64,000 bases of DNA from Gammaproteobacteria bacterium (GCA_050118655.1 JASFKL010000001.1:186-64185); one strand, 5' to 3'. Counted from the stretch's first letter, positions 2,731 through 61,113 are shown. A program made the numbers and translations. The notes: generated by a model not told the origin, from the sequence alone.

Positions 2731-4500
2731 ATGTTTCCCATTTCGAAGCCCCTGCCCGGGGACCGTAATCTGTTGGCCTATCCGCTGTTCGCGCTGTTGG
2801 TGGCGGGATGCGCGAACCTGCAACCCGCGCCCGATGCCGGCGGAGCGGACGCGGAGCCGATCCGGGCTCAGGACGCAGGCGACAACAGGCAGCAAATTGA
2901 CTCGCGCCTCGATGCGGTGGCGCTGGCTTCGGCCGGCTCGGTATATGTCGCTTACGATTTCGATTTCGAAAGCCAGCTGAAAATGGCCGAGACAGAGGCC
3001 GCCGAAAGACAGCGCGCGGCCGAGGCCGAAGCCAGGGCGGAAGCGGAGATCGTCGCCGCGATCAAGGCGGACCTGGAAGCGACCCGCAAGAAACACGATG
3101 CCTGGCTCAGGCTGCAACAGGGCATGCAATTGTCCGAGGTCCACAATGAGCGCGTCAACGCCCAGCTCAAATGGTTCGTCGATCACCCCGGATACATGCA
3201 ACGCGTGATGGAGCGCGCCCGTCCGATCCTGCCGTTCGTGCTCGACGAGCTCGAAGCGCGCAACCTCCCCAGCGAACTGGCCCTGCTGCCGATCGTCGAG
3301 TCGGCTTACCAGGCATTCGCCTATTCCCACGGACGCGCCTCGGGCATGTGGCAAATCATCCCCTCGACCGGCCGCTTCCTCGGGCTCAAGCAAAACTGGT
3401 GGTACGACGGACGTCGAGACATCATCGAGTCGACGCGCGCGGCGATCAATTATCTGCAGCAGTTGTCGCAGGAATTCGACGGCGACTGGGAACTCGCGCT
3501 CGCGGCCTACAACGCGGGGCCCGGCAGGATCCGCAGCGCGGTTCGCTACAACCGCTATCGGGACCGGCCGACCGATTTCTGGAGTCTGACCCGTATTCGC
3601 AAGGAGACCCAGGCTTACGTGCCGAAGATGTTCGCGCTCAAGGAAATGTTTACTCATCCGGAGAAGTACCAGCTCGACCTGTTGCCGATCAACAACCAGG
3701 TCAGTTACGAAATCGTCGAGCTCGACGGCCAGATCGATCTCGCGCTGGCCGCGGACCTGGCCGGAATCTCGGTGAATCAACTCTATCAGTTGAACCCGGC
3801 CTTCAATCGCTGGGCGACCGCGCCCGACGGGCCGCATCGCCTGCTGCTGCCGCGCGGCAAGGCGGATCATTTCAGGCACGAAGTCTCCAAGGTACCGAGT
3901 ACCAAGCGCATCAACTGGGTGCGGCACAAGATCAAGAGCGGTGAAACGCTGAGTGAAATCTCGCGACACTACCGGACTTCGGTGGCGCTGATCAGGGAAG
4001 TCAACAATATCCGCGGCAGCCATATCCGCGCCGGCAAATACCTGATGGTTCCGACGGCCACCAAATCGCTGAGAACCTATACCCTGAGCGCGAGTTCGCG
4101 GCTGGCAGCCCTGCAGAACACCGACCGCGGCGGAACCCGCCAGGAGCACATCGTGCGTCCGGGACAGAGCCTGTGGAGCATCTCGCGGAGCTACGGCGTC
4201 ACCACGCGGGCGCTCGCCAAGTGGAACGGCATGGCGCCGATCGATACCCTGCAGGTGGGACAGAAGCTCGTCGTATGGACCAGCGCCCAGGCGCGCAAGG
4301 TCAGTATCAGTCAGACGCGGCCCAGTAACGCATTACACGCGCTGCGCTACACTGTCCGCAAGGGAGATTCACTGTATCTCATCGCGGATCGCTTCAATGT
4401 CAGCATCGCGGATATCAGGCGCTGGAACCGGCTCGGCAAATATTTGCATCCCGGGCAAAAAATCAAACTTTACGTCGACATCACCAGTCAGTCCGGCTAG
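2731..4500 (+). CDS. mltD: membrane-bound lytic murein transglycosylase D, lipoprotein with SLT domain and three C-terminal LysM repeats
   Basis: N-terminal lipobox LLVAGC; SLT catalytic region ESAYQAFAYSHGRASGMWQIIPSTGR; three LysM repeats (HKIKSGETLSEIS..., HIVRPGQSLWSIS..., YTVRKGDSLYLIA...). Confidence 0.9.
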   Translation: MFPISKPLPGDRNLLAYPLFALLVAGCANLQPAPDAGGADAEPIRAQDAGDNRQQIDSRLDAVALASAGSVYVAYDFDFESQLKMAETEAAERQRAAEAEARAEAEIVAAIKADLEATRKKHDAWLRLQQGMQLSEVHNERVNAQLKWFVDHPGYMQRVMERARPILPFVLDELEARNLPSELALLPIVESAYQAFAYSHGRASGMWQIIPSTGRFLGLKQNWWYDGRRDIIESTRAAINYLQQLSQEFDGDWELALAAYNAGPGRIRSAVRYNRYRDRPTDFWSLTRIRKETQAYVPKMFALKEMFTHPEKYQLDLLPINNQVSYEIVELDGQIDLALAADLAGISVNQLYQLNPAFNRWATAPDGPHRLLLPRGKADHFRHEVSKVPSTKRINWVRHKIKSGETLSEISRHYRTSVALIREVNNIRGSHIRAGKYLMVPTATKSLRTYTLSASSRLAALQNTDRGGTRQEHIVRPGQSLWSISRSYGVTTRALAKWNGMAPIDTLQVGQKLVVWTSAQARKVSISQTRPSNALHALRYTVRKGDSLYLIADRFNVSIADIRRWNRLGKYLHPGQKIKLYVDITSQSG

Positions 4501-4617: not shown

Positions 4618-5673
4618 ATGAGCCTTGAAATTGATCCCAAACAAATAAAATCCTTCTCTCCGATCAATTCTCTGAATCCAGAAAACGCTCAAGAATTAGT
4701 CAACAAAATTACCGCTACCCCGATCCAGGCGGGCCACTATATCTTCAAGAAAGGTGATATGGACAAGGCGCACGTCTACGTGCTCTCGGGCGAAGTGGAG
4801 CTGGTGCAGGACAAAAAGGTGGTCAAGACCATCAAGGCGGGCTCCCCGGAAGGCATGCAACCGCTGGCGCACGGATTTCCCCGGCCGGTGTCGGCGCGCG
4901 CCAAGGTCGCCTCGGTGGTCACCAAGATCAACAGCGACATGCTCGACATCATGCTGACCTGGGACCAGTCGGGCAGTTACTCGGTAGAACCCGTCGACGA
5001 AGAAGACGAAGAAACCGACTGGATGACCCGCATCCTGCAAACCCGGGCCTTCCATCGCATTCCGCCGGCCAATATCCAGGCGATGTTCATGCGCATGGAA
5101 TCGGTCAGCTTCAAGCCCGGCGAGAAAGTGATCGAACAGGATGCCGAGGGCGATTATTTCTACATCATCAAGGAAGGCCGTTGCCTGGTCACCCGCTCCA
5201 CGCCGGCCAACCCGAATGGCGTCAAGCTGGCGACCCTGTCGGTGGGCGACAGTTTCGGCGAGGAAGCGCTGATCTCCGACAGCAAGCGCAACGCGACGAT
5301 CACGATGCTGTCCGAGGGGCATTTGATGCGCCTCAACAAGGAGGATTTCAACTCGCTGCTGAACGAACCGCTGCTCAACTGGGTCGATTACGACGAGGCC
5401 AGGAAACTGGTCGATGCGGGCGCCGTCTGGTTCGACGTACGCCTGCCTACCGAGCACAAGGCCAAGCACATCAAGGGCAGTATCAATATCCCGCTGATTT
5501 TCCTGCGCATGAAGGCCAATTCGCTCGATACCGAAAAGAAATACGTCATCTATTGCGATACCGGCCGGCGCAGCTCCGCGGCCTCTTTTCTACTCAACGA
5601 AAAGGATATCGAGACCTTCGTATTGCGCGACGGCGTCGATACCGCCGAGCCCTCCGACCTGGTTACCAGCTAA
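4618..5673 (+). CDS. signalling protein with two cyclic-nucleotide-binding (CAP effector) domains fused to a C-terminal rhodanese domain
   Basis: Two cNMP-binding cores are present (FKKGDMDKAHVYVLSGEVEL and FGEEALISDSKRNATITM, with the G-E-x-A-L...R-x-A-T phosphate-binding cassette). The C-terminus is a rhodanese with an intact catalytic loop, YCDTGRRSSAAS. Confidence 0.85.
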   Translation: MSLEIDPKQIKSFSPINSLNPENAQELVNKITATPIQAGHYIFKKGDMDKAHVYVLSGEVELVQDKKVVKTIKAGSPEGMQPLAHGFPRPVSARAKVASVVTKINSDMLDIMLTWDQSGSYSVEPVDEEDEETDWMTRILQTRAFHRIPPANIQAMFMRMESVSFKPGEKVIEQDAEGDYFYIIKEGRCLVTRSTPANPNGVKLATLSVGDSFGEEALISDSKRNATITMLSEGHLMRLNKEDFNSLLNEPLLNWVDYDEARKLVDAGAVWFDVRLPTEHKAKHIKGSINIPLIFLRMKANSLDTEKKYVIYCDTGRRSSAASFLLNEKDIETFVLRDGVDTAEPSDLVTS

Positions 5674-5702
5674 CGCGCCTCGACGCCGTCGGATCCCGCC
5701 GC

Positions 5703-7307
5703 TCAGCCGGCGTAGCCCGGGATTAGCGATTCGTCTATTTCGTCGATCTGCTCCGGATCGAGAAACTCCTCGGCGTAGTCGAGGTAAACCCGCTCGCGAA
5801 TGAAGATCTCGAAGATATCGGGATCGATGTGATTGTCCTTTTTCATGAATCCCATGATGCGCAGGCACTCGGACAGTTTCTTGCCATGCTTGTATGGCCG
5901 ATCGCTGGCGGTCAGGGCCTCGAAAATATCGGCCACCGCCATAATCCGGGCCTGTACCGACATTTCCTCCCTTTTGAGCCCGCGCGGGTATCCCGTGCCA
6001 TCCATTTTTTCATGATGTCCGCCGGCATACTCGGGTACGTTTTGCAAATTGCGGGGAAACGGCAGCGATTCCAGCATCTTGATGGTCGCGACGATATGGT
6101 TGTTGATGACTTCCCGCTCTTCATCGTTCAGCGTGCCGCGCTTGATACACAGGTTCATGACCTCGTCGTCGGTCAAAAGCGGCCGCGTCTCGCCGGACCC
6201 GTCCACCCATTCGAGCCCGGCGAGTTGCTTTACCCGGTCGATATCCTCGTCGCTCATGAATTCGCCGCCGACATTGGCCTTGCGCAAAAATTCGAAATCC
6301 TGCCGGTATTGCTCGCGACGGGATTCGAGATCCCTGTCCAGTTGTTCGACATCGGCCTTCGATCCGTTTGCCGCTAGACGTTTTTTCAAGTATTCGATTT
6401 CGGCGTCGCGCTGCAGGATCACGAAACGGGTTTCCAGCGCATTGATACGATCGTAAATCGTTTCCAGCTTGGTGGCCTTGTCCATCACGTACTCGGGGGT
6501 AACCACCTTGCCGCAATCGTGCAACCAGGCAGCGGTCTCGAGTTCGTAGCGATCCTTGTCGGTAATTCTGAAATCCTTCAGCGGCCCCTTGTCGTCCTGG
6601 TGCGCGGCCTCGGCAAGCATCATCGTCAATACCGGAATCCGCCGGCAATGACCGCCGGTATAGGGCGACTTGTCGTCGATCGCCGAGGCGATCATGCGGA
6701 TAAAAGATTCGAACAGGATTTGCAGTTCCGAGATCAGTCTCCGCTGGGTCAGCGCGACGGCTGCCTGGGAAGCCAGTGACTCGGCGAGTTGCTGTTCGAC
6801 GGCGCTGAAAACTTTGACCTCGCCGGTTTGCTCGTTCCTGGCATTGATCAATTGCAGCACGCCGATGATTTCCTTCTCGTGGTCCTTGAGCGGAAAGGTC
6901 AGCATGGAGCGGGTGCGGTAACCGGTCTTTTCGTCGAAGGCCCGCGTGCCCGAGAAATCGAAGCCGTCCTCGTTATAGGCGTCGGCAATGTTGATGGTTT
7001 CTCCGGACAGTACGCAGTGGGAGACGACGTTGGCATGGTTATCCTTGCCTTCGATCGACAGCGGTATCGCCGGAAAAGTGATTTCGTTACCCGAGGTACC
7101 GCCCATCTGTATATCGAGCGAATCGTTGGAAATGATCTCGAATCTGAGTTCGCCGTCGTTCAGAAAATACAGCGAGCCGCCATCCGCGTGGGTGAGCGAT
7201 TTTGCTCCCATCATGATCAGCTCGAGCAGCTTGGGCGTATCGTTTTCCGCCGACAGCGCGATGCCGATTTCATTTAACCGATCAATCCTGTCGAGCAATT
7301 CTGACAT
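5703..7307 (-). CDS. GAF-domain HD-GYP phosphodiesterase (predicted c-di-GMP hydrolase)
   Basis: N-terminal GAF region; HD motif in AAWLHDCGK; HD-GYP signature GGHHEKMDGTGYPRGL. Confidence 0.9.
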   Translation of the reverse strand: MSELLDRIDRLNEIGIALSAENDTPKLLELIMMGAKSLTHADGGSLYFLNDGELRFEIISNDSLDIQMGGTSGNEITFPAIPLSIEGKDNHANVVSHCVLSGETINIADAYNEDGFDFSGTRAFDEKTGYRTRSMLTFPLKDHEKEIIGVLQLINARNEQTGEVKVFSAVEQQLAESLASQAAVALTQRRLISELQILFESFIRMIASAIDDKSPYTGGHCRRIPVLTMMLAEAAHQDDKGPLKDFRITDKDRYELETAAWLHDCGKVVTPEYVMDKATKLETIYDRINALETRFVILQRDAEIEYLKKRLAANGSKADVEQLDRDLESRREQYRQDFEFLRKANVGGEFMSDEDIDRVKQLAGLEWVDGSGETRPLLTDDEVMNLCIKRGTLNDEEREVINNHIVATIKMLESLPFPRNLQNVPEYAGGHHEKMDGTGYPRGLKREEMSVQARIMAVADIFEALTASDRPYKHGKKLSECLRIMGFMKKDNHIDPDIFEIFIRERVYLDYAEEFLDPEQIDEIDESLIPGYAG

Positions 7308-7634
7308 CTACTGGCACCTGCCCCTCGCGGAGGCCGAGCTACGCGAGCTTCGAAAGTCGCTCTATTCTAGGTGAATCCCCGGGCATTTCAATTCCGGGCC
7401 GGTTAAATTTTTAACCCCAAGCACTGGTAAAAAAGCGCATTCAACCTTATAGTTTAGAGGCATCACGATTCATAAGAATACCGGGGGGGATCCAAGCTGT
7501 TAACCAGTTCAAGGTGTTCGCATAAACTATTGAATATTATACGAATCGGATTTCTTCATTTTCCGGTCGCACACCCAGTAAAGTACGACTATAACAAGCT
7601 GGGTGACTAATAAGAATCAAACTATGGAGACGGT

Positions 7635-10265
7635 ATGAAAACCCGTTTTTGGAGTAGCGACTGGTTCGCCGGGCTGCTGATTACCATCGTGATTGTGGCG
7701 GTCTCGGGTTCCGGCCCCTTCCAAAGCCTGGAGCGCTCGTTTTACGACTGGGGCGTGCGCTCGACCGACAGGACTCCCTCCGACAAGATTGCGATCATCG
7801 CCATCGACGACGAGAGTATCGACAACCTGGGCCGCTGGCCCTGGCCGCGCGACCTCCACGCCGAATTGATCAACCGGCTTTCCGAGGGCGGAGCCAAGGT
7901 CATCGGTCAAACCGTATTTTTCCTCGAACCCCAGGTCGATCCGGGGTTGACCTATATCCGCGAACTGATCGAGTTTTTCTCTACCGCGAGCTTCGGCGAC
8001 GTTCCCGCCGATATCGATGCGCTGGGCGCGATGCTGGAACTGGGCGGCAACAATCGCAAGATAAACGATATCCTCGAATTCTATCTCCAATCGAGCCTGA
8101 ATACGCGTCTCAACCAGGATATCGAAACCCTGAAATCCCGAATGTTCGAAGCCGAGCAGGCGCTCAACACCGACGCCAAGCTCGCCGAGAGCATGGAAAA
8201 AGCCAAGAACGTCGTGCTGGCGATGGTCTTTTACCTGGGCATCCCGCGCGGCAAGCCCGACGAGGAACTGCCCGACTACGTGCTGAAAAACTCGATCAGC
8301 CAGATCCGTGACCGCGTATCGGCACAACCCAACGGCCTGTTCCCGATTCCGACCATCGATGCGCTGACACCGATTCCGGAAATCGGCCGCTACGCGGCGG
8401 CGATCGGCCATCTCAATACCCTGCCCGATATCGACGGCGGGGTTCGTTCAGAGCCGCTGGTGCTGCAGTACTACGACCGCTTCTTCCCGTCGATATCGCT
8501 GCAAATCGCCGCGCGCAGCCTGAACCTCGACACCAACGACATCCGCGTCAATCTGGCGGAGAGCGTCGAACTCGGCAGTCTGGCAATCAAGACCGATACC
8601 CAGCTGCAGATGAATACCTTTTACTACTCGAATCGCGATGGTTTTCCGGCATTTCCGGTGGATTCGTTTTACGACGTATTCACCGGCAAGATTCCGATCG
8701 AAAAGTATCGCGGCAAGATCGTTTTGATCGGCCCCACCGCCACCGGCGTCGGTACGCCGCAGGTCACTCCCATCGATCCCGCAATGGCGCCGGTACTGAC
8801 GCTCGCACACTCGGTTTCGAGCATCCTCAAGGAGGATTTTTTCATCGAGCCCGAATGGGGCTTCTGGGCGCGCATGGGTACCTTCCTCGTGGTTGCGCTC
8901 TACCTGATGCTGCTGATGCCGCGGTTAAAGGCCGGTGTCGCTTTCGTGGTCACCACGGTGCTGGTGCTGGCACTGATCGCCACCCATTACATACTGATGA
9001 CCGGCAGCACGATGTGGATTCAGTTGATGACCCCGGGGGCCCTGCTGGTGATCGGTTACCTGTTGATCACCACCAAGAGATTCCTGGTCACCGAGCGCGG
9101 CAAGGCCAAATCCGACGTGGAATCGGCCGAGAGCAACCGGATGCTGGGTATCGCATTTCAAACCCAGGGTCAACTCGACATGGCGTTCGAAAAATTCCGC
9201 AAGTGCAGCCCGGTCGACGAACAGGTGCTCGAGGCGATGTACAACCTGGCGCTGGATTTCGAGCGCAAGCGGCAATTCAACAAGGCCACTTCGGTGTACC
9301 AGTACATGGCCAAGCACGACAAGAGCTTCCGTGATATCGAAACCCGTATGAACCGCGCGCAGAAGATGGAAGAAACCGTCATGCTCGGCGGTAGCGGCGG
9401 ACATGCGGGCGGCACCCTGCTGCTCGATGGCAGCGGTGTCGAAAAACCGATGCTGGGCCGTTACGAAGTCGAAAAGGAACTCGGCAAGGGCGCCATGGGT
9501 ATCGTCTACCTGGGCAAGGACCCCAAGATCAGCCGGGTCGTGGCGATCAAGACCATGGCCCTGGCGCAGGAGTTCGAAGCCGACGAACTCGACGAGGTCA
9601 AGGAGCGGTTCTTCCGCGAGGCGGAAACCGCGGGGCGCCTGAATCATCCCAATATCGTAACCATTTACGATGCCGGCGAGGAGCACGATCTCGCCTATAT
9701 CGCGATGGAATTTCTCAAGGGCTACGACCTTACGAAACACTGCAAGCCCGATAACCTGCTGGAAATGAATACCGTGGTCAGCATCGTCCAGCGCGCCGCC
9801 GAGGGCCTCGATTTCGCGCACCGGCAAAACGTCGTGCACCGCGATATCAAGCCGGCCAACATCATGTACGAGCCGGAATCGGATACCATCAAGATTACCG
9901 ATTTCGGTATCGCGAGAATTACCGATTCGAGCAAGACCAAGACCGGGATGGTACTCGGCACGCCCTCTTACATGTCTCCCGAACAACTGGCGGGCAAAAA
10001 AGTCGATGGACGTTCCGACCTGTTTTCACTCGGCGTCATGCTTTACCAGATGCTTTGCGGATCCCTGCCCTTCAAGGCGGATTCGATGGCCAGTCTGATG
10101 TTCAAGATCACCAACGAAGAGGCCCCGGACATTCGCAGCGTGCGCGAGGATATACCCCATGGCCTGGTCGAAGTAATCGCCTTGGCCATGACCAAGGATG
10201 CCGACCAGCGATATCAGACAGGAGCCGATTTTGCCAATGCATTGAAAGCATTTCTGAATAATTGA
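7635..10265 (+). CDS. CHASE2 sensor domain / TPR-like linker / Hanks-type Ser/Thr protein kinase (membrane-bound)
   Basis: N-terminal TM followed by a CHASE2 region (IAIDDESIDNLGRWPWPRD). Several TM helices follow (residues ~420-470), then TPR-like helices. The C-terminal kinase shows GKGAMGIVY, VAIK, HRDIKPAN, DFG and SPE motifs. An RBS (GGAGA) lies 5 nt upstream of the ATG. Confidence 0.9.
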   Translation: MKTRFWSSDWFAGLLITIVIVAVSGSGPFQSLERSFYDWGVRSTDRTPSDKIAIIAIDDESIDNLGRWPWPRDLHAELINRLSEGGAKVIGQTVFFLEPQVDPGLTYIRELIEFFSTASFGDVPADIDALGAMLELGGNNRKINDILEFYLQSSLNTRLNQDIETLKSRMFEAEQALNTDAKLAESMEKAKNVVLAMVFYLGIPRGKPDEELPDYVLKNSISQIRDRVSAQPNGLFPIPTIDALTPIPEIGRYAAAIGHLNTLPDIDGGVRSEPLVLQYYDRFFPSISLQIAARSLNLDTNDIRVNLAESVELGSLAIKTDTQLQMNTFYYSNRDGFPAFPVDSFYDVFTGKIPIEKYRGKIVLIGPTATGVGTPQVTPIDPAMAPVLTLAHSVSSILKEDFFIEPEWGFWARMGTFLVVALYLMLLMPRLKAGVAFVVTTVLVLALIATHYILMTGSTMWIQLMTPGALLVIGYLLITTKRFLVTERGKAKSDVESAESNRMLGIAFQTQGQLDMAFEKFRKCSPVDEQVLEAMYNLALDFERKRQFNKATSVYQYMAKHDKSFRDIETRMNRAQKMEETVMLGGSGGHAGGTLLLDGSGVEKPMLGRYEVEKELGKGAMGIVYLGKDPKISRVVAIKTMALAQEFEADELDEVKERFFREAETAGRLNHPNIVTIYDAGEEHDLAYIAMEFLKGYDLTKHCKPDNLLEMNTVVSIVQRAAEGLDFAHRQNVVHRDIKPANIMYEPESDTIKITDFGIARITDSSKTKTGMVLGTPSYMSPEQLAGKKVDGRSDLFSLGVMLYQMLCGSLPFKADSMASLMFKITNEEAPDIRSVREDIPHGLVEVIALAMTKDADQRYQTGADFANALKAFLNN

Positions 10266-10279
10266 GCCCAGACTGTTTG

Positions 10280-11104
10280 ATGAATTTGCAAAACAAGATA
10301 ACCATCCAGGGCCTGACTGACACGGGGATAGTGCGCGGCAAGAACGAGGACGCGATCGGTTATGACAGCGCGCTGGGTCTCGTGGTTCTCGCCGATGGCA
10401 TGGGAGGTCATCGCGGCGGCGAAATAGCCAGCAGTATGACCGTCGATACGGTTATCAATCTCCTGCAGCAGCGGCTGCCGGAAATCAACTCCGGCGACGT
10501 CGACGAAGCCAGTGGATTTTCGATGGAGTCGATTTGTATCCAGGATGCCGTGGTCGCGGCCAACGAACTGGTCTACAAGACCGCCGAGGCCAATCCCGAA
10601 CACAAGGGAATGGGCACCACGATCGTGGTATTGCAGTTCTACAACAATTCCTTCTCCCTCGCCCATATCGGCGACTCGCGCTGTTATCGTCTGCGCAATG
10701 ACAAGCTCGAACAGATTACCAAGGATCACTCCCTGTTACAGGAACTCATCGACCGCGGCTTCTATACGCCCGAAGAAGCGCGCAATTCGATGAACAAGAA
10801 TCTCGTGACGCGTGCCCTGGGCATCGATCCGATCGTCATGCCGGACATACAGGAGGATATAGTCCTGAAAAATGACATATATTTGCTATGTTCAGATGGG
10901 TTAACGGATTTAGTCGAAGACGAAGATATATACTTAACTATTAAGCAATTTAGTGCTAATCTAGAAGAAGCTGCCAAGCAATTGATTACAAAGGCAAACC
11001 AGAATGGCGGAAAGGATAATATTTCGGTAATGCTGTGCCGGATTGACGATGATTTTTCGTCCCGGCAAGGCTGGTTCAACAAGATTGTCGGCTGGTTCGA
11101 CTAA
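10280..11104 (+). CDS. PP2C-family Ser/Thr protein phosphatase
   Basis: Translation TDTGIVRGKNEDA...VLADGMGGHRGGEIAS...GDSRCYRL...LCSDGLTD shows PP2C motifs. I set the start at the ATG at 10280, 15 nt after the kinase stop; the ORF-track TTG at 10262 would overlap the kinase stop. Confidence 0.88.
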   Translation: MNLQNKITIQGLTDTGIVRGKNEDAIGYDSALGLVVLADGMGGHRGGEIASSMTVDTVINLLQQRLPEINSGDVDEASGFSMESICIQDAVVAANELVYKTAEANPEHKGMGTTIVVLQFYNNSFSLAHIGDSRCYRLRNDKLEQITKDHSLLQELIDRGFYTPEEARNSMNKNLVTRALGIDPIVMPDIQEDIVLKNDIYLLCSDGLTDLVEDEDIYLTIKQFSANLEEAAKQLITKANQNGGKDNISVMLCRIDDDFSSRQGWFNKIVGWFD

Positions 11105-11150
11105 CGGATTACACACCCAGTACAAACTACTCTACAGGCTGGATAATAAA

Positions 11151-11873
11151 ATGGTCGCAAAACTGATCACTACTTCAAGCACGGGCGAAAAAACCGAGTA
11201 TGAACTGGTCAATGAAACCACCACGATTGGGCGTAAGCCGGGTAACGATATTCAAATCGATAATCTGTCAGTCAGCGGCAGGCATGCGCAGGTAATCACC
11301 ATCCTCGAAGATTCATTTCTGGAAGATCTCGGCAGCACCAACGGCACTTACGTCAACGGCAAACTGGTAAAAAAACACGCGCTCGAAGACGGCGACAGTA
11401 TCACCCTGGGCAAGTATCAAATCACCTACCAGAATAACTCCGGCGGCGGTGAACAGGATTTCGAACAAACCATGATTATCCGCCCCGGCGAAGCGGGCAT
11501 GCCCGAAGAAGCCGGCAGCAAGGAAATCGACAAGTCGGTGCAAAAAATTTCAGCGGCGATCGCCTCGGAGGCAGCCAGCACAGCCTCGTCGCCGATGTCT
11601 AACAAGGAAGCCTGCCTGCAATTGCTCAGCGGCGCCAACGCCGGCAAGGAGCTGGTATTGACCAAGGCCCTGACCACCATCGGCCAGCCGGGTGTGCAGG
11701 TGGCGGCGATCACCCGCCGTCCGCAAGGCTTTTTCCTGATTCACGTCGATGGCGGCCCGAACAACAATGTCCCGAAAGTCGGCGGCTCGGAGATCGGCTC
11801 GAACGCGCACGAACTCAAGAGCCACGACATTATCGAAGTAGCCGGCGTAAAAATGGAGTTCTACCTCAAATAA
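11151..11873 (+). CDS. FHA-domain protein (N-terminal canonical FHA plus C-terminal FHA-like domain)
   Basis: N-terminal FHA signature TIGRKPGNDIQIDNLSVSGRHAQV...GSTNGTYVNG. C-terminal second domain TTIGQPGVQVAAITRRPQGFFLIHVDGGPNNNVPKVGGSEIGSNAHELKSHDIIEVAGVKMEF. I set the start at the internal ATG at 11151. Confidence 0.8.
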   Translation: MVAKLITTSSTGEKTEYELVNETTTIGRKPGNDIQIDNLSVSGRHAQVITILEDSFLEDLGSTNGTYVNGKLVKKHALEDGDSITLGKYQITYQNNSGGGEQDFEQTMIIRPGEAGMPEEAGSKEIDKSVQKISAAIASEAASTASSPMSNKEACLQLLSGANAGKELVLTKALTTIGQPGVQVAAITRRPQGFFLIHVDGGPNNNVPKVGGSEIGSNAHELKSHDIIEVAGVKMEFYLK

Positions 11874-11913
11874 AGCCGTTCCTGCTCGTCCGCATTGAAA
11901 CCGGGGGCAAACA

Positions 11914-14145
11914 ATGCAATTACAGCGCATAGTCAGGCTGGTGCTTAGCGCACTGATCCTGCTGGTCATCCTGCTCGACACCTCCGGAGTTTACAAGTAT
12001 CCATTCATCAAGCAGCTGGAAAACTGGACTTACGACGCGCGGCTGAACTTTACCCGTCCCGATACCGTCGACGATCGCGTGGTTATCGTCGATATCGACG
12101 AAACCTCGCTCGCCGAGGTCGGCCGCTGGCCCTGGGGTCGCGACCAGCTCGCGCGCATCGTCGACAACCTGTTCGACTTTTACGGGGCCGACGTGGTCGC
12201 CTTCGATATCGTATTCGCCGAAAAAGACGAGAGCTCCGGACTGGAACAGTTCGAGCAGCTGGCGCGAACCACGTTGCGCGGCGACGAGGAATATATCGAG
12301 GCGCTCGATAAGATCCGGCCGAGCCTCAAACACGACGAAATTTTCGCGCAGAGCCTGGTCGGTAAAAACGTCGTTCTCGGCTATTACTTCAAGTCCAGGT
12401 TGCAGGAAGGAGAAAGCGGTGTCACCGGCCTCCTGCCCCCCGCATTGACCAGGATGGACAGGCAGTGGAGCGAACGCCTGCCGATCAACAAGGCGGTAGG
12501 CTACGGCGGCAACCTGGAAATACTGCAAACCTCGGCACGCTCCGGCGGCTACTTCGACAACCCCTTCGTCGATGCCGACGGCGTATTTCGCCGCGTGCCG
12601 CTGGTGCAGTCCTACCAGGGCTACCTGTTCGCCTCGCTGGCTCTCGCCACTACCCAGGCGTATCTCGACGCCGACGGTATCGAGCTGGCGATCGAAACCG
12701 AGGGAACGCGCGGCGAGAACGAATATTTCGCGCTGGAGACGATTAACCTGAAGAATCACAAGATTCCCGTGGACGCCAACGGCGCGGTGTTCGTGCCCTA
12801 CCGCGGCAGGCAGGGAAGCTTTCCCTATATCCCCGCCCACGAAGTGCTGAGCCGCAAGACCAACCCGCTGGCGCTAAAGAACAAGATCGTACTGATCGGC
12901 ACCTCGGCACCGGGCCTGCTCGACCTGCGCTCTACTCCAGTACAAAACATTTATCCCGGGGTCGAGGTCCATGCCAATATCATTTCCGGCATCCTCGACG
13001 ATCGTATCAAGCACAAGCCGGCCTGGACGGTGGGTTACGAACTCGTGTTACTGATAGTCATCGCGGTCAGCATGGCCTTGCTGTTGCCGCTGGTTTCGCC
13101 GCTGCTGGCGGCGACCGGGACGCTCGGGATTACCGGCCTGGTGGTCGCCGGAACCTTCGTCGCCTGGAACAACAACCTGATCCTGCCGCTGGCGAGCCCG
13201 CTGCTGCTGATTCTGTTGCTGTTCATGCTGCACATGTCCTACGGATTCTTCATCGAGTCCCGTGGCAAGCGGCAGCTCGCTAACCTGTTCGGGCACTACA
13301 TACCGCCCGAACTGGTCGACGAGATGAGCGAATCGCCCGAGGAATATTCGCTCGAGGGCGAGAACCGTGAAATGACCGTGCTGTTTTCGGACGTGCGCGG
13401 ATTCACGTCGATCTCGGAAGGCATGGACCCGAAACAGTTGACCCAGCTCATGAACGCGCTGTTGACGCCGATGACGCGCGTCATCCACAAGAACCGGGGT
13501 ACGATAGACAAGTACATGGGAGATGCCATCATGGCCTTCTGGGGCGCGCCGCTGGCCAATGCCGAGCATGCCCGGCACGCGCTCTATGCCGCACTCCAGA
13601 TGATGGAAGAACTGAAGATAATGCAGGAAGACTTCAAGCAACGCGGCTGGCCGACGGTCAACATCGGTATCGGCTTGAACACCGGCGACATGAACGTCGG
13701 CAACATGGGATCGGAATTCCGCATGGCTTATACCGTGCTCGGCGACGCGGTCAACCTGGGTTCGAGGCTCGAGGGCCTGACCAAGGAATACGGCGTCAAC
13801 ATCATCGTCAGCGAATCCACCAAGGCGGCGATACCCGAATTCGTATTCCGAGAACTCGACCTGGTCAGGGTGAAAGGCAAGAACGAACCGGTCGCAATTT
13901 TCGAACCGGTCGGGCACAAAAACGATCTCGACAAGTCGGTCACCTCGGAGATCAGCGAATACCGCAAGGCATTGATGAACTTTCGCTCCCAGTCCTGGGA
14001 CAAGGCCGAGCTCGATTTCTTCAACCTCAACCGCATCAACCCGGACCGGCAGCTATACCAGGTCTACCTCGAACGTATCGCGGTCTACCGCAGGGAGCCG
14101 CCCGGAGAGGGCTGGGACGGCGTTTTTACGCACACCACGAAGTAA
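11914..14145 (+). CDS. CHASE2 sensor domain / class III nucleotidyl (adenylate/guanylate) cyclase, membrane-bound
   Basis: CHASE2 region (VVIVDIDETSLAEVGRWPWGRD) is paralogous to that of the kinase. TM helices follow (residues ~370-440). The cyclase catalytic domain shows FSDVRGFT, KYMGDAIMAFWGAP and GDAVNLGSRLE. Confidence 0.9.
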   Translation: MQLQRIVRLVLSALILLVILLDTSGVYKYPFIKQLENWTYDARLNFTRPDTVDDRVVIVDIDETSLAEVGRWPWGRDQLARIVDNLFDFYGADVVAFDIVFAEKDESSGLEQFEQLARTTLRGDEEYIEALDKIRPSLKHDEIFAQSLVGKNVVLGYYFKSRLQEGESGVTGLLPPALTRMDRQWSERLPINKAVGYGGNLEILQTSARSGGYFDNPFVDADGVFRRVPLVQSYQGYLFASLALATTQAYLDADGIELAIETEGTRGENEYFALETINLKNHKIPVDANGAVFVPYRGRQGSFPYIPAHEVLSRKTNPLALKNKIVLIGTSAPGLLDLRSTPVQNIYPGVEVHANIISGILDDRIKHKPAWTVGYELVLLIVIAVSMALLLPLVSPLLAATGTLGITGLVVAGTFVAWNNNLILPLASPLLLILLLFMLHMSYGFFIESRGKRQLANLFGHYIPPELVDEMSESPEEYSLEGENREMTVLFSDVRGFTSISEGMDPKQLTQLMNALLTPMTRVIHKNRGTIDKYMGDAIMAFWGAPLANAEHARHALYAALQMMEELKIMQEDFKQRGWPTVNIGIGLNTGDMNVGNMGSEFRMAYTVLGDAVNLGSRLEGLTKEYGVNIIVSESTKAAIPEFVFRELDLVRVKGKNEPVAIFEPVGHKNDLDKSVTSEISEYRKALMNFRSQSWDKAELDFFNLNRINPDRQLYQVYLERIAVYRREPPGEGWDGVFTHTTK

Positions 14146-14151
14146 TACCGT

Positions 14152-15390
14152 TTACCAGCAGGCGCGTAATTCCCGCGCCAGTATGCCGACGCCTTTTTCG
14201 AGTTCCTCCTCGCTCTGCGCATAGTTCATGCGCACGCAACTCTCGGCGTGCGCGGACACGTTCTGCTGCCCGGGAAAGAAGTACTTGCCAGGCACGACCA
14301 GTAAACCGTTGCGCTTGAGCCGCTGGTAGAGTTCGGTAGTGGTCACGCCGAGATCTTCGAACCACAGCCACAGGAACATCGATCCCTCGGGTTTGTGGAT
14401 GTGCAGCCGCGGATCCTCGATCGCCTCGCGCAGCAGCCTGACCGCGAGTTCCGAGCGCTGCAGGTAAAACGGCCGGATGATATCGTCGCAAAGCGGTTGC
14501 AGGGCATCGTCGACGATCAGCTGGCGGACGATTTCGGCGCCGAGACCCGCCGGCGCGAGGCTGGTTATCGCGGTCATGTTGGAAAAATAGCGAATCAACT
14601 CCTCGTTGGCGATCACGATCCCGGTACGCGCGCCGGGCAACCCGAGCTTCGACAGGCTCATGCAAACGATGCAGTTATCGTTCCAGAAGGGATTGACGCC
14701 GGTGAATATGATGTTCGGGAAAGGCGTGCCGTAGGCATTGTCGATCAACAGCGGAACGTCGTGGTCGCGGGCGATCTGGTCGAGTTGCCCGCACTCGGCG
14801 TCGGTGAGCACGTTGCCGCTCGGATTGGTAGGCCGAGAAACGCAAATCAGGCCCACGGAATCGTCGGCCTCGAGCTGCTCGAAGTCGACCTGGTACTTGA
14901 AAAACCCGTCATCGAGGTGCTGAATCCTGGCCTCCTGGCTGGCGAGCAATCCCTCTTCGATACCGACGTCGCAGTAGCCGATATACTCGGGCACCAGCGG
15001 GATCAGAACGCGTTTACGGCCTTGCCTCGAGCGGCCGGCAAAAGAATTGAATAGAATGAAGAACGAACTCTGGCTACCGTGGGTCAAGGCGATATTGCGG
15101 CTGCTGATCGGCCAGCCGTAACGATCCCGGAAGTACTCGGCCAGCGCTTCGAGAAAGCCCGCCCTGCCCTGCGGCGCATCGTAGTTGGAAAGCGCCTCGA
15201 CCAGGGCGCCCGATTCCCGCAGTTTGTCGAGCACCTGGCCCACTATCTTCTTGACCTCGGGGATCGAAGCGGGATTGCCGCCGCCGAGCATGACCACGCC
15301 GGGTTGCGCGAGACCCTCGCTCAAATCGTCCATCAGGTGGGTAATACCGGAGTAACCGTTGAAATGTTCGCCGAATTCAGAAAATTTCAT
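14152..15390 (-). CDS. avtA: valine-pyruvate aminotransferase (aminotransferase class I/II)
   Basis: N-terminus MKFSEFGEHFNGYSGITHLMDDLSEGL...MLGGGNPASIPE resembles the E. coli AvtA N-terminus from memory. A PLP-lysine region SLSKLGLPGARTG is present. Confidence 0.85.
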   Translation of the reverse strand: MKFSEFGEHFNGYSGITHLMDDLSEGLAQPGVVMLGGGNPASIPEVKKIVGQVLDKLRESGALVEALSNYDAPQGRAGFLEALAEYFRDRYGWPISSRNIALTHGSQSSFFILFNSFAGRSRQGRKRVLIPLVPEYIGYCDVGIEEGLLASQEARIQHLDDGFFKYQVDFEQLEADDSVGLICVSRPTNPSGNVLTDAECGQLDQIARDHDVPLLIDNAYGTPFPNIIFTGVNPFWNDNCIVCMSLSKLGLPGARTGIVIANEELIRYFSNMTAITSLAPAGLGAEIVRQLIVDDALQPLCDDIIRPFYLQRSELAVRLLREAIEDPRLHIHKPEGSMFLWLWFEDLGVTTTELYQRLKRNGLLVVPGKYFFPGQQNVSAHAESCVRMNYAQSEEELEKGVGILARELRACW

Positions 15391-18865: not shown

Positions 18866-18942
18866 TGGCGGAGTGGACGGGACTCGAACCCGCGACCCCC
18901 GGCGTGACAGGCCGGTATTCTAACCAACTGAACTACCACTCC
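18866..18942 (-). tRNA. tRNA-Asp (GUC)
   Basis: Reverse complement GGAGTGGTAGTTCAGTTGGTTAGAATACCGGCCTGTCACGCCGGGGGTCGCGGGTTCGAGTCCCGTCCACTCCGCCA. Anticodon loop CUGUCAC. Near-identical to E. coli tRNA-Asp. Confidence 0.92.
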
Positions 18943-18950
18943 AGATTAGG

Positions 18951-19026
18951 TGGTGGGTGCTGACGGGATCGAACCGCCGACCCTCGCCTTGTAAGGGCGA
19001 TGCTCTCCCAGCTGAGCTAAGCACCC
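18951..19026 (-). tRNA. tRNA-Val (UAC)
   Basis: Reverse complement GGGTGCTTAGCTCAGCTGGGAGAGCATCGCCCTTACAAGGCGAGGGTCGGCGGTTCGATCCCGTCAGCACCCACCA. Anticodon UAC. Confidence 0.92.
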
Positions 19027-25705: not shown

Positions 25706-25791
25706 TGGTGCGAAAGGAGAGACTCGAACTCTCACATCGTAAAGATACCAGAACCTAAATCTGGCGCGTCTACCAATTCCGCCACTTTCGC
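25706..25791 (-). tRNA. tRNA-Leu (UAG), long-variable-arm type, 86 nt
   Basis: Reverse complement GCGAAAGTGGCGGAATTGGTAGACGCGCCAGATTTAGGTTCTGG...GAGTTCGAGTCTCTCCTTTCGCACCA. Anticodon loop AUUUAGG. Confidence 0.88.
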
Positions 25792-25892
25792 AGTCGTTTC
25801 GTGCCTGCCTGATTACCGGACGCCGTGCCGCGCTCCGCGTCGCCGCGCGGAGTCGAAAACTAACGGCGCCTGCATCGCAGGCGCCGTGTGTA

Positions 25893-25969
25893 TGGGGTGG
25901 ACGATGGGGATCGAACCCACGACAACAAGAATCACAATCTTGCACTCTACCAACTGAGCTACGCCCACC
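25893..25969 (-). tRNA. tRNA-His (GUG), with the extra 5' G(-1)
   Basis: Reverse complement GGTGGGCGTAGCTCAGTTGGTAGAGTGCAAGATTGTGATTCTTGTTGTCGTGGGTTCGATCCCCATCGTCCACCCCA. Confidence 0.92.
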
Positions 25970-25975
25970 ATAATT

Positions 25976-26052
25976 TGGCACGCCCGGCAGGATTCGAACC
26001 TGCTACCCTCGGCTTAGAAGGCCGATGCTCTATCCAAATGAGCTACGGGCGC
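25976..26052 (-). tRNA. tRNA-Arg (UCU)
   Basis: Reverse complement GCGCCCGTAGCTCATTTGGATAGAGCATCGGCCTTCTAAGCCGAGGGTAGCAGGTTCGAATCCTGCCGGGCGTGCCA. Confidence 0.92.
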
Positions 26053-26056
26053 TTCG

Positions 26057-26194
26057 GATACCTCTCTCACGGCGTATTTTAGCCGATTGCTGCGTTGCCG
26101 CCGTGCTCGGATCCTCATGTATGTCTTTATACACTGCGGTCCTGCGCGCGGCGGCGCCTTGCACTCAACTAAAATACGCCGTGAGAGAGGCATC
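26057..26194. repeat. 138-bp element bounded by 26-nt inverted repeats (25/26 match) in the tRNA-Pro/tRNA-Arg spacer
   Basis: Left arm GATACCTCTCTCACGGCGTATTTTAG (26057-26082). Right arm CTAAAATACGCCGTGAGAGAGGCATC (26169-26194). The 86-nt interior is GC-rich. The element begins 4 nt from the tRNA-Arg 5' end. Confidence 0.7.
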
Positions 26195-26395
26195 CTCCAG
26201 TTCAAATTCCGACCGGTCATCCTAAACCTTTTGTATCCCCGGATTGCCGCCGTAGGGGAGGCAACCTGGATTCGTCTTGCCGGCGATAATTCCATTAATA
26301 TACGCGCCAATCGCGTATTCGGATGCCGGGAACCTGCCGTTTCCTCGAACCCCCGATATCCGGGGTGCAATGATAGCAAATTCCCGACAAAATTG

Positions 26396-26472
26396 GTCGG
26401 GGTGGAGAGATTCGAACTCCCGACCCACTGCTCCCAAAGCAGTTGCGCTACCAGGCTGCGCTACACCCCGTG
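26396..26472 (-). tRNA. tRNA-Pro (UGG)
   Basis: Reverse complement CGGGGTGTAGCGCAGCCTGGTAGCGCAACTGCTTTGGGAGCAGTGGGTCGGGAGTTCGAATCTCTCCACCCCGACCA. Confidence 0.9.
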
Positions 26473-41800: not shown

Positions 41801-42418
41801 GGCTACCGGCTCGGGCGTCGCGATCTCGTTGCCAGAGCCGTCATCCGACAAGGCGATCGGCTCGCTGAGCTGCTCGCCGGTTTCGGCAGACTCGGCGGAT
41901 TCGGATTCCATGGTGCTGGTCACGCCGGTCTGCTCGACGATATCGCTGACACTCGATTCGTCGCTGATCGGTGCGGCGGCCTGCTGGCTGGCAGGCTCTA
42001 CGGGCGGCGGCTGATCGGCATAGAACGGCGGGTCGAGCAAGACCGTGAATTCGCGCAGTACCCTGCCCTTGGCCCAATCGGCCTCGATGAGGAAATTCAG
42101 AAAGGGTTCCTTGACGCCGTCCTTGGTGGACACCACGATGACGGCCTCGTCGCCGGCCTCGTTCTTCCTGACGGAAAAACGCAGGTCCAGAAGATTGCGC
42201 GGGCGTGCCAGGCCGGCGCGGGAAAATGCTTCGCGGGAAGCGAGGCTGACCAGTAAATCGTCGATCTCGCCGGGACGGGCGGAAATAACCGGGATCTCCG
42301 CTTCTAGCGGCTGGTTCAGGAATGACTTGACTTCGATCTCACCCAAACCCAAGGCGAGCGCGTTGGTCGGCAAGATCGCCGTTAGCCACAATGCAACTAT
42401 TAGTCCCAGATTACGCAC
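38804..42418 (-). CDS. fimV: FimV-family peptidoglycan-binding protein (LysM, long acidic repetitive region, C-terminal TPR-like FimV motif)
   Basis: Signal/TM N-terminus, FimV N-domain, LysM (YVNKGDTLWSIAKLY), a coiled-coil, and >400 aa of Asp/Glu-rich repeats with DFDLGADD units. C-terminal motif LDLARAFIDMGDTEGARGSLEEVIAEGNDAQKEEAQALLEQI. Conserved position between truA and asd. Confidence 0.85.
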   Translation of the reverse strand: MRNLGLIVALWLTAILPTNALALGLGEIEVKSFLNQPLEAEIPVISARPGEIDDLLVSLASREAFSRAGLARPRNLLDLRFSVRKNEAGDEAVIVVSTKDGVKEPFLNFLIEADWAKGRVLREFTVLLDPPFYADQPPPVEPASQQAAAPISDESSVSDIVEQTGVTSTMESESAESAETGEQLSEPIALSDDGSGNEIATPEPVAQPEPEPIADSSSYQYTPSSSQTGLDQEVYVNKGDTLWSIAKLYKDDRHSMSQVMLAFQRANPDAFNDGNINNMKEGAILRAPDAAELDAMGEQEAYAEVLVQNGLWDEYVARVTGVSTTAAVDQGESAESTESAGGETADTGESGGELSLLLPADGGGDSAGTGDGAEVEELRTKLAMAEEELEASRIENRELESRISDLQARLSKVEELQKMVEIEDDSLARLQADQSAQQPEAGASEGGEPVEEPPAEAGNGKVESSEDALIEELLAEEAAAQAEEEAAKAPAASDDGMVSDEGTAGGMVEDEAAGQAPAAEMGSTEGMAADEGEEAATGGQSDDQGQAAQQTTPPAPVIVTEQTKREPSFLDGILPAGAADMIPSMPSMGGIFSDPITLAALGGVVLLLVALLVIKRKKNSSDSESTITASGDEDLFADDEEELTPIHLADVELPEDTDIKTPSDEDIPSADELDTMTSTAEVTAEVPPQAEDDFAQTSIISATDMPEPEAPAPAATAEPAEQDDVLNEVDVYLAYGLYDNAEELLNSSLTDNPDRADYRSKLLDTYFATKNESAFVKEAEKLKSMGDAATRYWDRVQIMGYELAPDNPLFSEAKDSDLSAADLEIANPQEADFDLGADDDDTSFSTTDFDLGADDTGGDFNEDESGGDDDSLPPTQVIQQVDELPELGEEEVAATQVVQQVGDFPDLGEDDETNLNQRAEEPEDSGLDLPDDIGDELEFSIDDEDTVGAGESADQADDELDMAMDFDLDDGTTDDDPSDFDLGEDLGFADDDDGGDEIEDSIELEVPEEDGADDFLEATAVVSSDELEASLLGGDDSESDDDEGIDLGMDDTGIMDLNDPSLDTGELQLPTDDDGDIDDDEDVSILDFGADDFEEPTALVESAGDDDSLSIDVDMEDDDEEARTGTFAPGDFDEPTAVADAADLDDIDDLMLPDDVDEVSTKLDLARAFIDMGDTEGARGSLEEVIAEGNDAQKEEAQALLEQI
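39471..39925. repeat. DNA-level direct repeats (GCCGAGATCGAAATC-type, three copies plus a longer 23-nt near-identical pair) inside the fimV acidic-repeat coding region
   Basis: CCGAGATCGAAATCGG at 39471-39486. GCGCCGAGATCGAAATCGG at 39861-39879. GGCGCCGAGATCGAAATC at 39908-39925. On the coding strand these encode DFDLGA units. Confidence 0.6.
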
Positions 42419-55638: not shown

Positions 55639-55808
55639 GGCGTTGCTTCTGTGGACGACGCCGGAATTGTCCGCGATCCGTGGTTTTATTGCCAGTCCGC
55701 GCATTATATCAGCATTGCGCATGCACTCATTCGGCTCATGCGATATACGGGCTAGCCAAGGCAGGAAAAATCGATAAGAATCCGGGAATTGAAATCAGTG
55801 GAGCCTTC

Positions 55809-60877: not shown

Positions 60878-61113
60878 CGAGTCTCCGGACGGGAGGCTGA
60901 CGACGGACAGCCGCCGACTGCGCCTCCGGTTAACATGACTGTTTTCGAAACCTGGAATTCTAAAGCAAATCCCGGATTCGCGCAGCTTTCGATCGCGCAC
61001 CGACAAGACGCGATAGACGAAAACAAAAGGCCCTGCCCCCGAATCGGCGCGGATGAATTCGACCGTCGCCATGTTATCCTTCGTTATTACGGTCCTGGTA
61101 ACGAGGAATTGAA

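Follow-up and report, generated by a model that had tools for sequence, protein, structure and literature searches.

Several described systems hold parts of the signalling machinery considered here. Writer, eraser and reader of Ser/Thr phosphorylation are encoded side by side in the triads of Hanks-type kinase, PP2C phosphatase and FHA protein, such as the mycobacterial PknB-PstP-FhaA/GarA or the PpkA-PppA-Fha1 set of type VI secretion systems (T6SS). CHASE2 receptor adenylate cyclases are exemplified by CyaD1, CyaD2 and CyaK of Sinorhizobium meliloti, while Cya1 of Synechocystis is a fusion of an FHA domain to an adenylate cyclase. In Pseudomonas aeruginosa, the Pil-Chp/FimV/CyaB-cAMP-Vfr circuit for surface sensing brings together a class IIIb membrane cyclase, cyclic AMP (cAMP) and type IV pili. 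Ser/Thr phosphorylation, cAMP and cyclic di-GMP (c-di-GMP) are nevertheless usually studied apart, and the six-gene cluster that we describe here, from a 64,000-nucleotide stretch of a Gammaproteobacteria bacterium genome (GCA_050118655.1, JASFKL010000001.1:186-64185; hereafter the window, meaning the whole stretch), would hard-wire all three.

The cluster lies between mltD and avtA and encodes a cyclic nucleotide (cNMP)-binding rhodanese protein, a GAF-HD-GYP enzyme, a CHASE2-TPR-Hanks kinase, a PP2C phosphatase, an FHA adaptor and a CHASE2 adenylate cyclase. We consider it probable, although by no means assured, that it couples a phosphothreonine (pThr) switch formed by kinase, PP2C and FHA protein to cyclic-nucleotide signalling, in which cAMP made by the receptor cyclase would be read by the cNMP-rhodanese protein and the GAF-HD-GYP enzyme. 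In the open-access literature we found no report of this cluster or of any cNMP-rhodanese fusion, in agreement with the initial annotation of the locus, which had not recognised the arrangement as a described system; an account in a subscription journal is possible.

Six signalling proteins

Open reading frame (ORF) calling and Pfam/NCBIfam searches of the window recover the six genes in the order and orientations that the initial annotation had given, and bear out the domains that it had read by eye, with complete catalytic motifs (Pfam matches are counted when above the gathering score unless stated otherwise). Domains, motifs and hydropathy uphold the set of writer, eraser and reader and the two CHASE2 receptors that accompany it, the proposed class III cyclase has a Guanylate_cyc match and can be refined to class IIIb with an ATP-type Lys/Thr pair, and the TPR repeats assigned to the kinase are found against consensus TPR structures. 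The description of the adaptor as a "dual-FHA" protein stands for one canonical FHA domain, whereas the second domain is a degenerate pseudo-FHA.

The kinase (7635-10265, plus strand; 876 aa) is a receptor Ser/Thr kinase with Pfam matches to CHASE2 (174.2 bits) and Pkinase (191.3 bits). It comprises, in order, a transmembrane (TM) segment (residues 11-29), the CHASE2 domain (17-422), three TM segments (approximately 410-478), two TPR repeats, the threonines Thr581 and Thr594, and the Hanks domain (610-876). Hydropathy peaks at 11-29 and 410-478 give a 1+3 TM topology, which is shared with the cyclase (peaks at 3-21 and 377-440) and is predicted to put the output domain of both CHASE2 proteins in the cytoplasm. 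The TPR repeats (residues ~493-572, nt 9111-9350) fall below the Pfam threshold and match consensus TPR structures with E ~1e-11. The Hanks core is complete (GKGAMG617, VAIK636-639, HRDIKPAN735, DFG756 and an APE-like TPSYMSPE776). Just N-terminal to the kinase domain, Thr581 (ETVML, codon 9375-9377) is kept in 31 of 35 full-length orthologues and Thr594 (GGTLLL, codon 9414-9416) in 28 of the 35, each with Leu at +3, which fits the preference of FHA domains.

The PP2C phosphatase (10280-11104, plus strand, with the ORF open from 10262; 274 aa) is of the Stp1/IreP type, scoring 55.0 bits in Pfam and 248.6 bits against the NCBIfam Stp1/IreP model (cutoff 230), and all of its metal-binding motifs are present (RGKNED, DGMGG39, GDSR131, CSDGL204, GGKDNI243). 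It is followed by the gene for the FHA adaptor (11151-11873, plus strand, with the ORF open from 11043; 240 aa); the ATG starts at 10280 and 11151 are favoured by orthologue lengths for the two proteins. Pfam finds one FHA domain only in the adaptor (76.9 bits), corresponding to a canonical domain at residues 1-95 in which G27, R28, S42, H45, T63, N64 and G65 are invariant in an alignment of 44 sequences. Residues 154-239 nevertheless match FHA in profile-profile comparison (hhalign of the N- against the C-terminal domain, 96.8%, E 2.3e-10); a 12-residue deletion here removes the SxxH loop and the GR arginine is also gone, such that, judged by FHA residues, this pseudo-FHA is predicted not to be a functional pThr reader. 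In the AlphaFold2 (AF2) model (pLDDT 85.9) both domains exceed 90 and the linker between them is disordered (<50). The linker carries Thr107 (FEQTMIIRP, codon 11469-11471) within the pattern F-E-x-T-M-[IV]-[IL]-R-P, which is kept in 37 of the 44 sequences. According to Foldseek, the N-terminal domain is closest to GarA, OdhI and EmbR (E ~1e-8), with a root-mean-square deviation of 1.3 A to GarA/OdhI. Among longer members of the family we found extra FHA repeats or longer linkers only, and no fusions to other domains. No T6SS genes occur in the block or its flanks, the NCBIfam TagH match reaches 45.7 bits against a cutoff of 120, and the trio does not belong to the T6SS threonine phosphorylation pathway (PpkA/PppA/Fha1/TagH).

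The cyclase (11914-14145, plus strand; 743 aa) matches CHASE2 with 204.0 bits and Guanylate_cyc with 82.4 bits. Its first TM segment (residues 3-21) is followed by the CHASE2 domain (15-385), three TM segments (~377-440), the cyclase domain (~480-660, nt 13351-13893) and a conserved tail of ~80 aa, for which (residues 660-743) no significant structural relative was found. The CHASE2 domains of kinase and cyclase are only 23% identical. Across 52 cyclase orthologues D493, K533, D537, N614 and R618 are invariant, and T607 is present in 51. ATP-using class IIIb enzymes carry a Lys/Thr pair, guanylate cyclases using Glu together with Cys, Ser or Gly, and by these residues the protein is of class IIIb type, with cAMP as its predicted product. 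The best matches of the cyclase domain in the Protein Data Bank (PDB) are the CyaB1 fusion 6fht, P. aeruginosa CyaB 3r5g and CyaC 1wc0, with 124-132 bits against the CyaB1 and CyaB structures.

The cNMP-rhodanese protein (4618-5673, plus strand; 351 aa) matches Pfam cNMP_binding in two stretches (98.7 bits) and Rhodanese (48.2 bits), which correspond to a degenerate cNMP-binding domain at residues ~15-115, a canonical one at ~145-250 and a rhodanese domain at 259-340. The phosphate-binding cassette of the canonical domain, FGEEALISDSKRNAT, spans residues 213-227 (nt 5254-5298), and Cys313 (codon 5554-5556) lies in the rhodanese loop YCDTGRRS; both the cassette (FGEEAL..KRNAT) and the Cys loop (YC[DQ][ST]GRRS) are invariant in 21 gamma- and betaproteobacterial orthologues. 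Since Cys313 opens a six-residue loop, C-DTGRR, the domain is of the catalytic type and predicted to be active. Its matches to PspE/GlpE-type models fall below their cutoffs; the best PDB sequence matches of the protein are the cNMP-binding domains of PKG/PKA, and PspE. A homologue search returned relatives at least 84% identical only and added no distant gene contexts. We rejected a role as a Crp/Fnr-type cAMP receptor transcription factor: the C-terminal domain is the rhodanese, Pfam finds no helix-turn-helix, and a CRP-box search gave zero sites in the block, its matches across the window being fewer than expected by chance.

The GAF-HD-GYP enzyme (5703-7307, minus strand; 534 aa) matches Pfam GAF (46.9 bits) and HD_5 (152.1 bits), and all metal and GYP motifs are present (GGH220, H263-D264, H404, H431-H432-E433..DGTGYP and D460, within strings such as LHDCGK262, HHEKMDGTGYP431 and VADIFEAL458). 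It matches PmGH (4mcw, E 6.8e-36) in two stretches on either side of a helical insert of ~110 aa (residues 276-386; nt 6150-6482, minus strand), which separates the HD motif from the H..HHE..GYP half of the HD-GYP domain and is kept in 13 of the 13 gamma- and betaproteobacterial orthologues examined. By its residues the enzyme is of the PmGH type, predicted to act as a c-di-GMP phosphodiesterase, and its GAF domain is most similar to the cNMP-binding GAFs of PDE5, PDE2 and CyaB2. The insert is bordered by two similar K-x-[GT]-K/T-L-x-x-E segments, which suggest a partial duplication.

Kinase, PP2C, FHA and cyclase genes are co-directional, with spacers of 14, 46 and 40 nt in which a site scan found no terminator-like sites. 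The kinase and HD-GYP genes diverge from an intergenic region of 327 nt (7308-7634). On its minus strand a consensus scan places a promoter-like site for the HD-GYP gene (TTGAAA at 7391-7386 and TAGAAT at 7369-7364), so named from its likeness to the consensus. An alignment of six orthologous intergenic regions reveals blocks 5' of the kinase gene, picked out by their conservation (CTGGTAAAAA..ACCTTATAGTT, CTGTTAACCAGTTCA, ATTGAATATTATA), and a GGAG ribosome-binding site for that gene is predicted within the same region. In both convergent pairs the stop codons are nearly back to back (6 nt apart for cyclase and avtA, 14145-14152; 29 nt for cNMP-rhodanese and HD-GYP, 5673-5703), and no terminator-like hairpin was detected at either junction.

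Linkage across proteobacteria and the mltD-avtA site

The two-domain FHA family comprises 347 cluster representatives at E <1e-30. A species-level genome scan with the family alignment gave at least 80 loci (the best listed) in Gamma-, Beta- and Zetaproteobacteria, the matches listed being relatives at no more than 55% identity, and domains on these loci were mapped with phmmer. Among the matches listed, the PP2C-FHA pair forms a near-universal core (adjacent in 75 of 80 loci), the kinase gene is usually, not always, upstream of it, and the pair is often found without any cyclase. In many Burkholderiales, Rhodocyclales and Chitinimonas, however, the genes form an extended co-directional array: CHASE2-kinase, PP2C, FHA, CHASE2-cyclase, a metallo-beta-lactamase (MBL)-fold hydrolase, in some cases the cNMP-rhodanese gene, a GAF-MshEN-T2SSE ATPase and GAF-HD-GYP (among others in L003, L007, L011, L019, L031, L037, L044, L046, L050, L055, L057 and L080). 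Cultured bacteria with the full array include Chitinimonas viridis CECT 7703 (L037), Acidovorax delafieldii DSM 64 (L056) and Rubrivivax sp. RP6-9 (L062). This array typically has recA-sucCD-TerC on one side and one or two type IV pilin genes on the other, and the best NCBIfam match of its ATPase is PilB (481 bits, below cutoff).

Full-length comparisons of the window's proteins with their betaproteobacterial orthologues give identities of 55-60% for the kinase and for HD-GYP (including its insert), 43-49% for the cyclase, 46-53% for PP2C, 44-55% for FHA and 32-42% for cNMP-rhodanese, and in two loci (L003, L080) full-length orthologues of all six genes occur in one co-directional array. The comparison of gene neighbourhoods that the initial annotation had proposed thus shows that the set recurs in a larger form, next to pilus genes, in many Beta- and Gammaproteobacteria, and since the genes for the MBL phosphodiesterase-like and GAF-PilB-like proteins are absent from the 64-kb window, the window's block is a reduced version of a larger conserved cluster.

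Co-occurrence counts, which are descriptive and drawn from 59 species-level loci with enough flank that are not phylogenetically independent, link the remaining genes to the cyclase. All cyclase-linked kinases are of the CHASE2 type (12/12), whereas none of the 21 non-CHASE2 kinases accompanies a CHASE2 cyclase. Genes for cNMP-rhodanese (4/16 loci with a CHASE2 cyclase vs 0/43 without) and HD-GYP (7/16 vs 1/43) are nearly confined to CHASE2-cyclase loci, and the GAF-T2SSE ATPase (13/16 vs 4/43) and the MBL hydrolase (14/16 vs 12/43) were counted in the same way. The hydrolase has a PDEase_II-like motif and is at best a weak candidate for a cAMP phosphodiesterase. In several gammaproteobacterial loci, Woeseiaceae-type and other (L004, L018, L021, L022, L024, L025, L029), it is divergent and upstream of kinase-PP2C-FHA with no cyclase nearby, which links the hydrolase to the phospho-module itself. 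The adjacency of ATPase and pilin genes in Betaproteobacteria suggests that surface or type IV pilus behaviour may have been the ancestral output.

The initial annotation had regarded the block as an inserted accessory module, and this does not hold. Scanning metagenomes with AvtA gave 68 loci. Wherever a contig had an AvtA at least 67% identical (range 67-92%) and enough flank, the cyclase-FHA-PP2C-kinase array abuts avtA, with cNMP-rhodanese and mltD on the far side, whereas loci with an AvtA of no more than 51% identity lack the block. Across the clade MltD and AvtA, encoded in the flanks, have diverged more than the signalling proteins: in L103, for example, identities are 96% for FHA, 92% for PP2C, 91% for cNMP-rhodanese, 86% for the cyclase, 85% for the kinase and 81% for HD-GYP, vs 77% for AvtA, MltD being ~69% identical in neighbouring loci. 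The GC content at third codon positions (GC3) of the block genes is host-like (0.65-0.80 vs 0.69-0.81 in housekeeping genes). We found no bounding or att-like repeats around the block, the only notable repeat being the GRWPW motif shared by the CHASE2 domains, and no adjoining tRNA, the nearest being 4.7 kb off, beyond avtA; every ORF inside the block is accounted for, no search aimed at integrases having been made. On these grounds (fixed site, host-like GC3, absence of repeats and tRNA, less conserved flanks) a genomic island or mobile accessory module was rejected. The cluster is chromosomally fixed and vertically inherited; at most, an ancient acquisition en bloc by the ancestor of the clade is possible. 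The PP2C and FHA genes (10280-11873) have a lower GC (0.51 and 0.55) and GC3 (0.65 and 0.69) than the other block genes and the housekeeping genes (GC3 0.73-0.81), and are nevertheless the block's most conserved proteins.

Of the flanking genes, avtA (14152-15390, minus strand) scores 596 bits, above cutoff, as an NCBIfam valine-pyruvate transaminase. The mltD-like gene (2731-4500, plus strand) matches NCBIfam murein transglycosylase D with E 4.5e-115, and its name rests on this sub-threshold match together with Pfam SLT and LysM, because 384.6 bits is below the 508-bit cutoff. An Rfam scan of the window found tRNAs alone and no rRNA; the tRNA clusters, Asp-Val between ppiD and the ORFs upstream of lon (18866-19026) and Leu-His-Arg-Pro between tig and cysS (25706-26470, minus strand), do not border the signalling block. 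Further along, the N-terminal domain of FimV is recognised (E 3.6e-37) in an ORF of 1204 aa (38804-42418, minus strand). The FimV protein of Pseudomonas binds peptidoglycan, is associated with pili and has ties to CyaB and cAMP, and the FimV-like ORF suggests that the window's lineage has type IV pili. Two ORFs of 487 and 610 aa (55752-57215 and 61087-62919, both minus strand) have no Pfam match at E <=1e-5 and may not be genes, given that long antisense-shadow ORFs occur in this GC-rich window.

A candidate phosphothreonine and cyclic-nucleotide circuit

In the mechanism that we propose, a periplasmic or envelope cue would act on both CHASE2 receptors, and the kinase would autophosphorylate on the juxta-kinase residues Thr581 and Thr594, on which the canonical N-terminal FHA domain could dock the adaptor. 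The kinase might then phosphorylate Thr107 (T-M-I-I) in the adaptor's linker, phospho-Thr107 folding back on the adaptor's own FHA domain in the manner of the GarA/OdhI switch, while PP2C would reverse phosphorylation and so reset the switch. The pseudo-FHA domain may make contact with an output protein, for which the product of the next gene downstream, the cyclase, is the most probable candidate, with the effect of tuning cAMP synthesis. The rhodanese protein would sense the resulting cAMP through its canonical cNMP-binding domain, which might gate the catalytic Cys, and the HD-GYP enzyme would do so through its cNMP-type GAF, tying cAMP to c-di-GMP breakdown. Individual steps have parallels elsewhere: structures of Bdellovibrio DgcB, a nucleotide cyclase under FHA control, are among the Foldseek matches (control through phosphopeptide and FHA domain being taken from the PDB titles), Tlr0485 has a cAMP-dependent HD-GYP activity, as cited by Galperin and Chou (10.1101/2021.11.05.467447), and cAMP is sensed by the EAL enzyme Bd1971 in the account given in PMC6717892.

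A number of observations weigh against this coupling of the pThr switch to cAMP. To begin with, every step beyond the intact domains is one that we infer. Across the 52 orthologues, the cytoplasmic part of the cyclase has no conserved non-catalytic Thr that would mark it as a direct FHA target, and since the closest structural relatives of the cNMP-binding and GAF domains bind cyclic GMP (cGMP), the receptors alone do not prove that cAMP is the messenger. Pilin genes may adjoin the betaproteobacterial clusters by inherited synteny (recA-sucCD-TerC-...-pilin) and not for reasons of function, and the counts from the 59 loci above are not phylogenetically independent. Moreover, the kinase gene is absent near the cluster in four betaproteobacterial loci, and two of the extended arrays (L007, L011) have no kinase gene within 4-10 kb.

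Gene loss within the clade of the window points the same way. In the 15 relatives assessed, being contigs that span most or all of the block, cyclase, FHA, PP2C and cNMP-rhodanese are intact throughout (15/15). By contrast, only four have an intact HD-GYP gene (as do the window and L001), three have remnants of it and eight lack it, and the kinase is a dead C-terminal remnant of 93-251 aa in five and split in one. These deletions (in L093, L096, L099, L100, L107, L110, L112, L116, L122, L124 and L126) fall in the region orthologous to window positions 5703-10265, and the differing sizes of the remnants indicate several, apparently independent deletions centred on the divergent HD-GYP/kinase promoter region. 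In the kinase-less relatives no functional residue of PP2C or FHA has been lost, the Thr107 motif included; a kinase that is dead or absent nearby while PP2C and FHA are intact shows that the neighbouring kinase is not obligatory. The suggestion of the initial annotation that the six genes belong together is supported by linkage conserved in two proteobacterial classes, but the unit is not an obligate one, since close relatives have repeatedly lost the kinase and HD-GYP genes. The same deletion series, in which kinase or HD-GYP is lost and the rest stays intact, provides a natural guide to the core parts.

One alternative hypothesis is that the six genes are independent signalling neighbours without a shared pathway. 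The deletion of HD-GYP and kinase from a block whose other genes stay intact is in keeping with this, as is the orientation of the cNMP-rhodanese (convergent) and HD-GYP (divergent) genes, which are transcribed apart from the four-gene array. We nonetheless regard it as rather unlikely, given that the same set is linked in Betaproteobacteria in another order and orientation, as selection for linkage would give, and that cNMP-rhodanese and HD-GYP hardly occur away from CHASE2 cyclases.

A second hypothesis keeps the pathway and changes its messenger, the cyclase being a guanylate cyclase whose cGMP, or both cyclic nucleotides, would feed PKG-like and PDE5-like domains. The receptors lend it some colour, as cGMP-dependent kinases are the best PDB matches of the cNMP-binding domain, PDE5 GAF-A domains are the best matches of the GAF domain, and the residue following the cassette Arg is Asn, neither the Ala of the PKA type nor the Thr of the PKG type. 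The cyclase itself, in contrast, shows the class IIIb adenylate cyclase pattern in Lys533 and Thr607, and the closest solved cyclases are all adenylate cyclases, which makes cGMP an unlikely messenger.

We also consider improbable that kinase, PP2C and FHA control envelope or cell-wall growth in the manner of Stk1/Stp1 or PknB/PstP/FhaA, tied to mltD and with the cyclase as a parallel output. Kinase and PP2C do have the Stk1 and Stp1 models as their best NCBIfam matches, the block abuts a murein transglycosylase gene, and the PP2C-FHA core is common without a cyclase. However, PASTA domains are absent, the kinase reaches 306 bits against the 450-bit cutoff of Stk1, adjacency to mltD is specific to one clade (the betaproteobacterial site being sucCD-TerC/pilin), and the trio is recurrently linked to cyclic-nucleotide genes.

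Finally, a mobile accessory or anti-phage island, Pycsar-like or PD-T4-6-like, as PADLOC matches might suggest (PycC on the cyclase domain, E 1.4e-33; PycTIR/effector models on the cNMP-binding domain; PD-T4-6 on the kinase domain, E 1.7e-91), is very improbable, since these matches span generic catalytic or binding domains only, neither a TIR nor a pore effector is present, the cyclase has the build of a membrane receptor and residues of the ATP type, and the site is fixed in all assessed relatives with AvtA at or above 67% identity, with the block more conserved than its flanks and the evidence on GC3, repeats, tRNA and ORFs (integrases not specifically searched for) as given above. Membership of Pycsar was rejected on the same generic-domain matches, the rhodanese in place of a TIR or TM effector, the ATP-type receptor cyclase and the fixed locus.

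The coupling of a pThr switch to cAMP signalling hence remains our preferred reading. A broader version of it is possible, if doubtful: the block would be the reduced form of a widespread proteobacterial super-cluster, in which an invariant core of PP2C and FHA/pseudo-FHA would integrate Ser/Thr phosphorylation, cAMP synthesis and turnover and c-di-GMP hydrolysis and control the GAF-PilB-like ATPase, and in which the cNMP-rhodanese protein would be a cAMP effector of a new class (a sulfurtransferase gated by cyclic nucleotides, or a persulfide/redox switch). The cNMP-binding rhodanese is in any case a candidate for a new type of cAMP effector. With conservation from uncultured sediment Gammaproteobacteria to cultured Burkholderiales, Rhodocyclales and Chitinimonas, the cluster offers a tractable system for CHASE2 receptor signalling and a means of asking whether adenylate cyclases come under the control of FHA adaptors in trans.

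Comparison with known systems

All parts of the cluster come from known families, and its wiring has partial precedents. As in the Hanks/PP2C/FHA triads, writer, eraser and reader are neighbours, the pThr-binding residues are canonical and the fold is nearest GarA, OdhI and EmbR; a conserved Thr in a flexible segment suggests an intramolecular switch like that of GarA/OdhI. In contrast to those triads, the sensor is CHASE2 plus TPR rather than of PASTA or vWA type, there is a second, degenerate FHA domain, the candidate acceptor Thr is C-terminal to the FHA domain, and the genes are linked to cyclic-nucleotide enzymes, with no T6SS or cell-division genes nearby.

The cyclase shares CHASE2, three TM segments, a class III catalytic domain and the Lys/Thr pair with known CHASE2 receptor adenylate cyclases and class IIIb cyclases (the latter including CyaB1, P. 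aeruginosa CyaB and Spirulina CyaC). Unlike those, its gene follows the kinase, PP2C and FHA genes in an array that also encodes a second CHASE2 receptor, whose sensor is only 23% identical. The HD-GYP enzyme likewise has the GAF plus HD-GYP architecture and all metal and GYP residues of the PmGH family; its GAF is of the cNMP type, and Tlr0485 offers a precedent for a link from cAMP to HD-GYP. It differs from PmGH in the conserved helical insert between the HD and GYP halves. Bdellovibrio DgcB (FHA-GGDEF) is a precedent for coupling FHA to second-messenger synthesis; whereas DgcB and Cya1 are fusions, FHA and cyclase are here separate polypeptides, and their putative coupling is read from gene order only.

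Compared with the Pil-Chp/CyaB/Vfr circuit, the predicted input consists of CHASE2 and Ser/Thr phosphorylation rather than chemosensory proteins, the candidate cAMP receptor is a rhodanese fusion and not Crp/Vfr, and neither pilin nor PilB is encoded in the window's block. Both nevertheless involve a class IIIb membrane cyclase, and the betaproteobacterial clusters end with a GAF-PilB-like ATPase and a pilin gene, such that the cluster may represent another way of connecting the sensing of surface or envelope with type IV pili.

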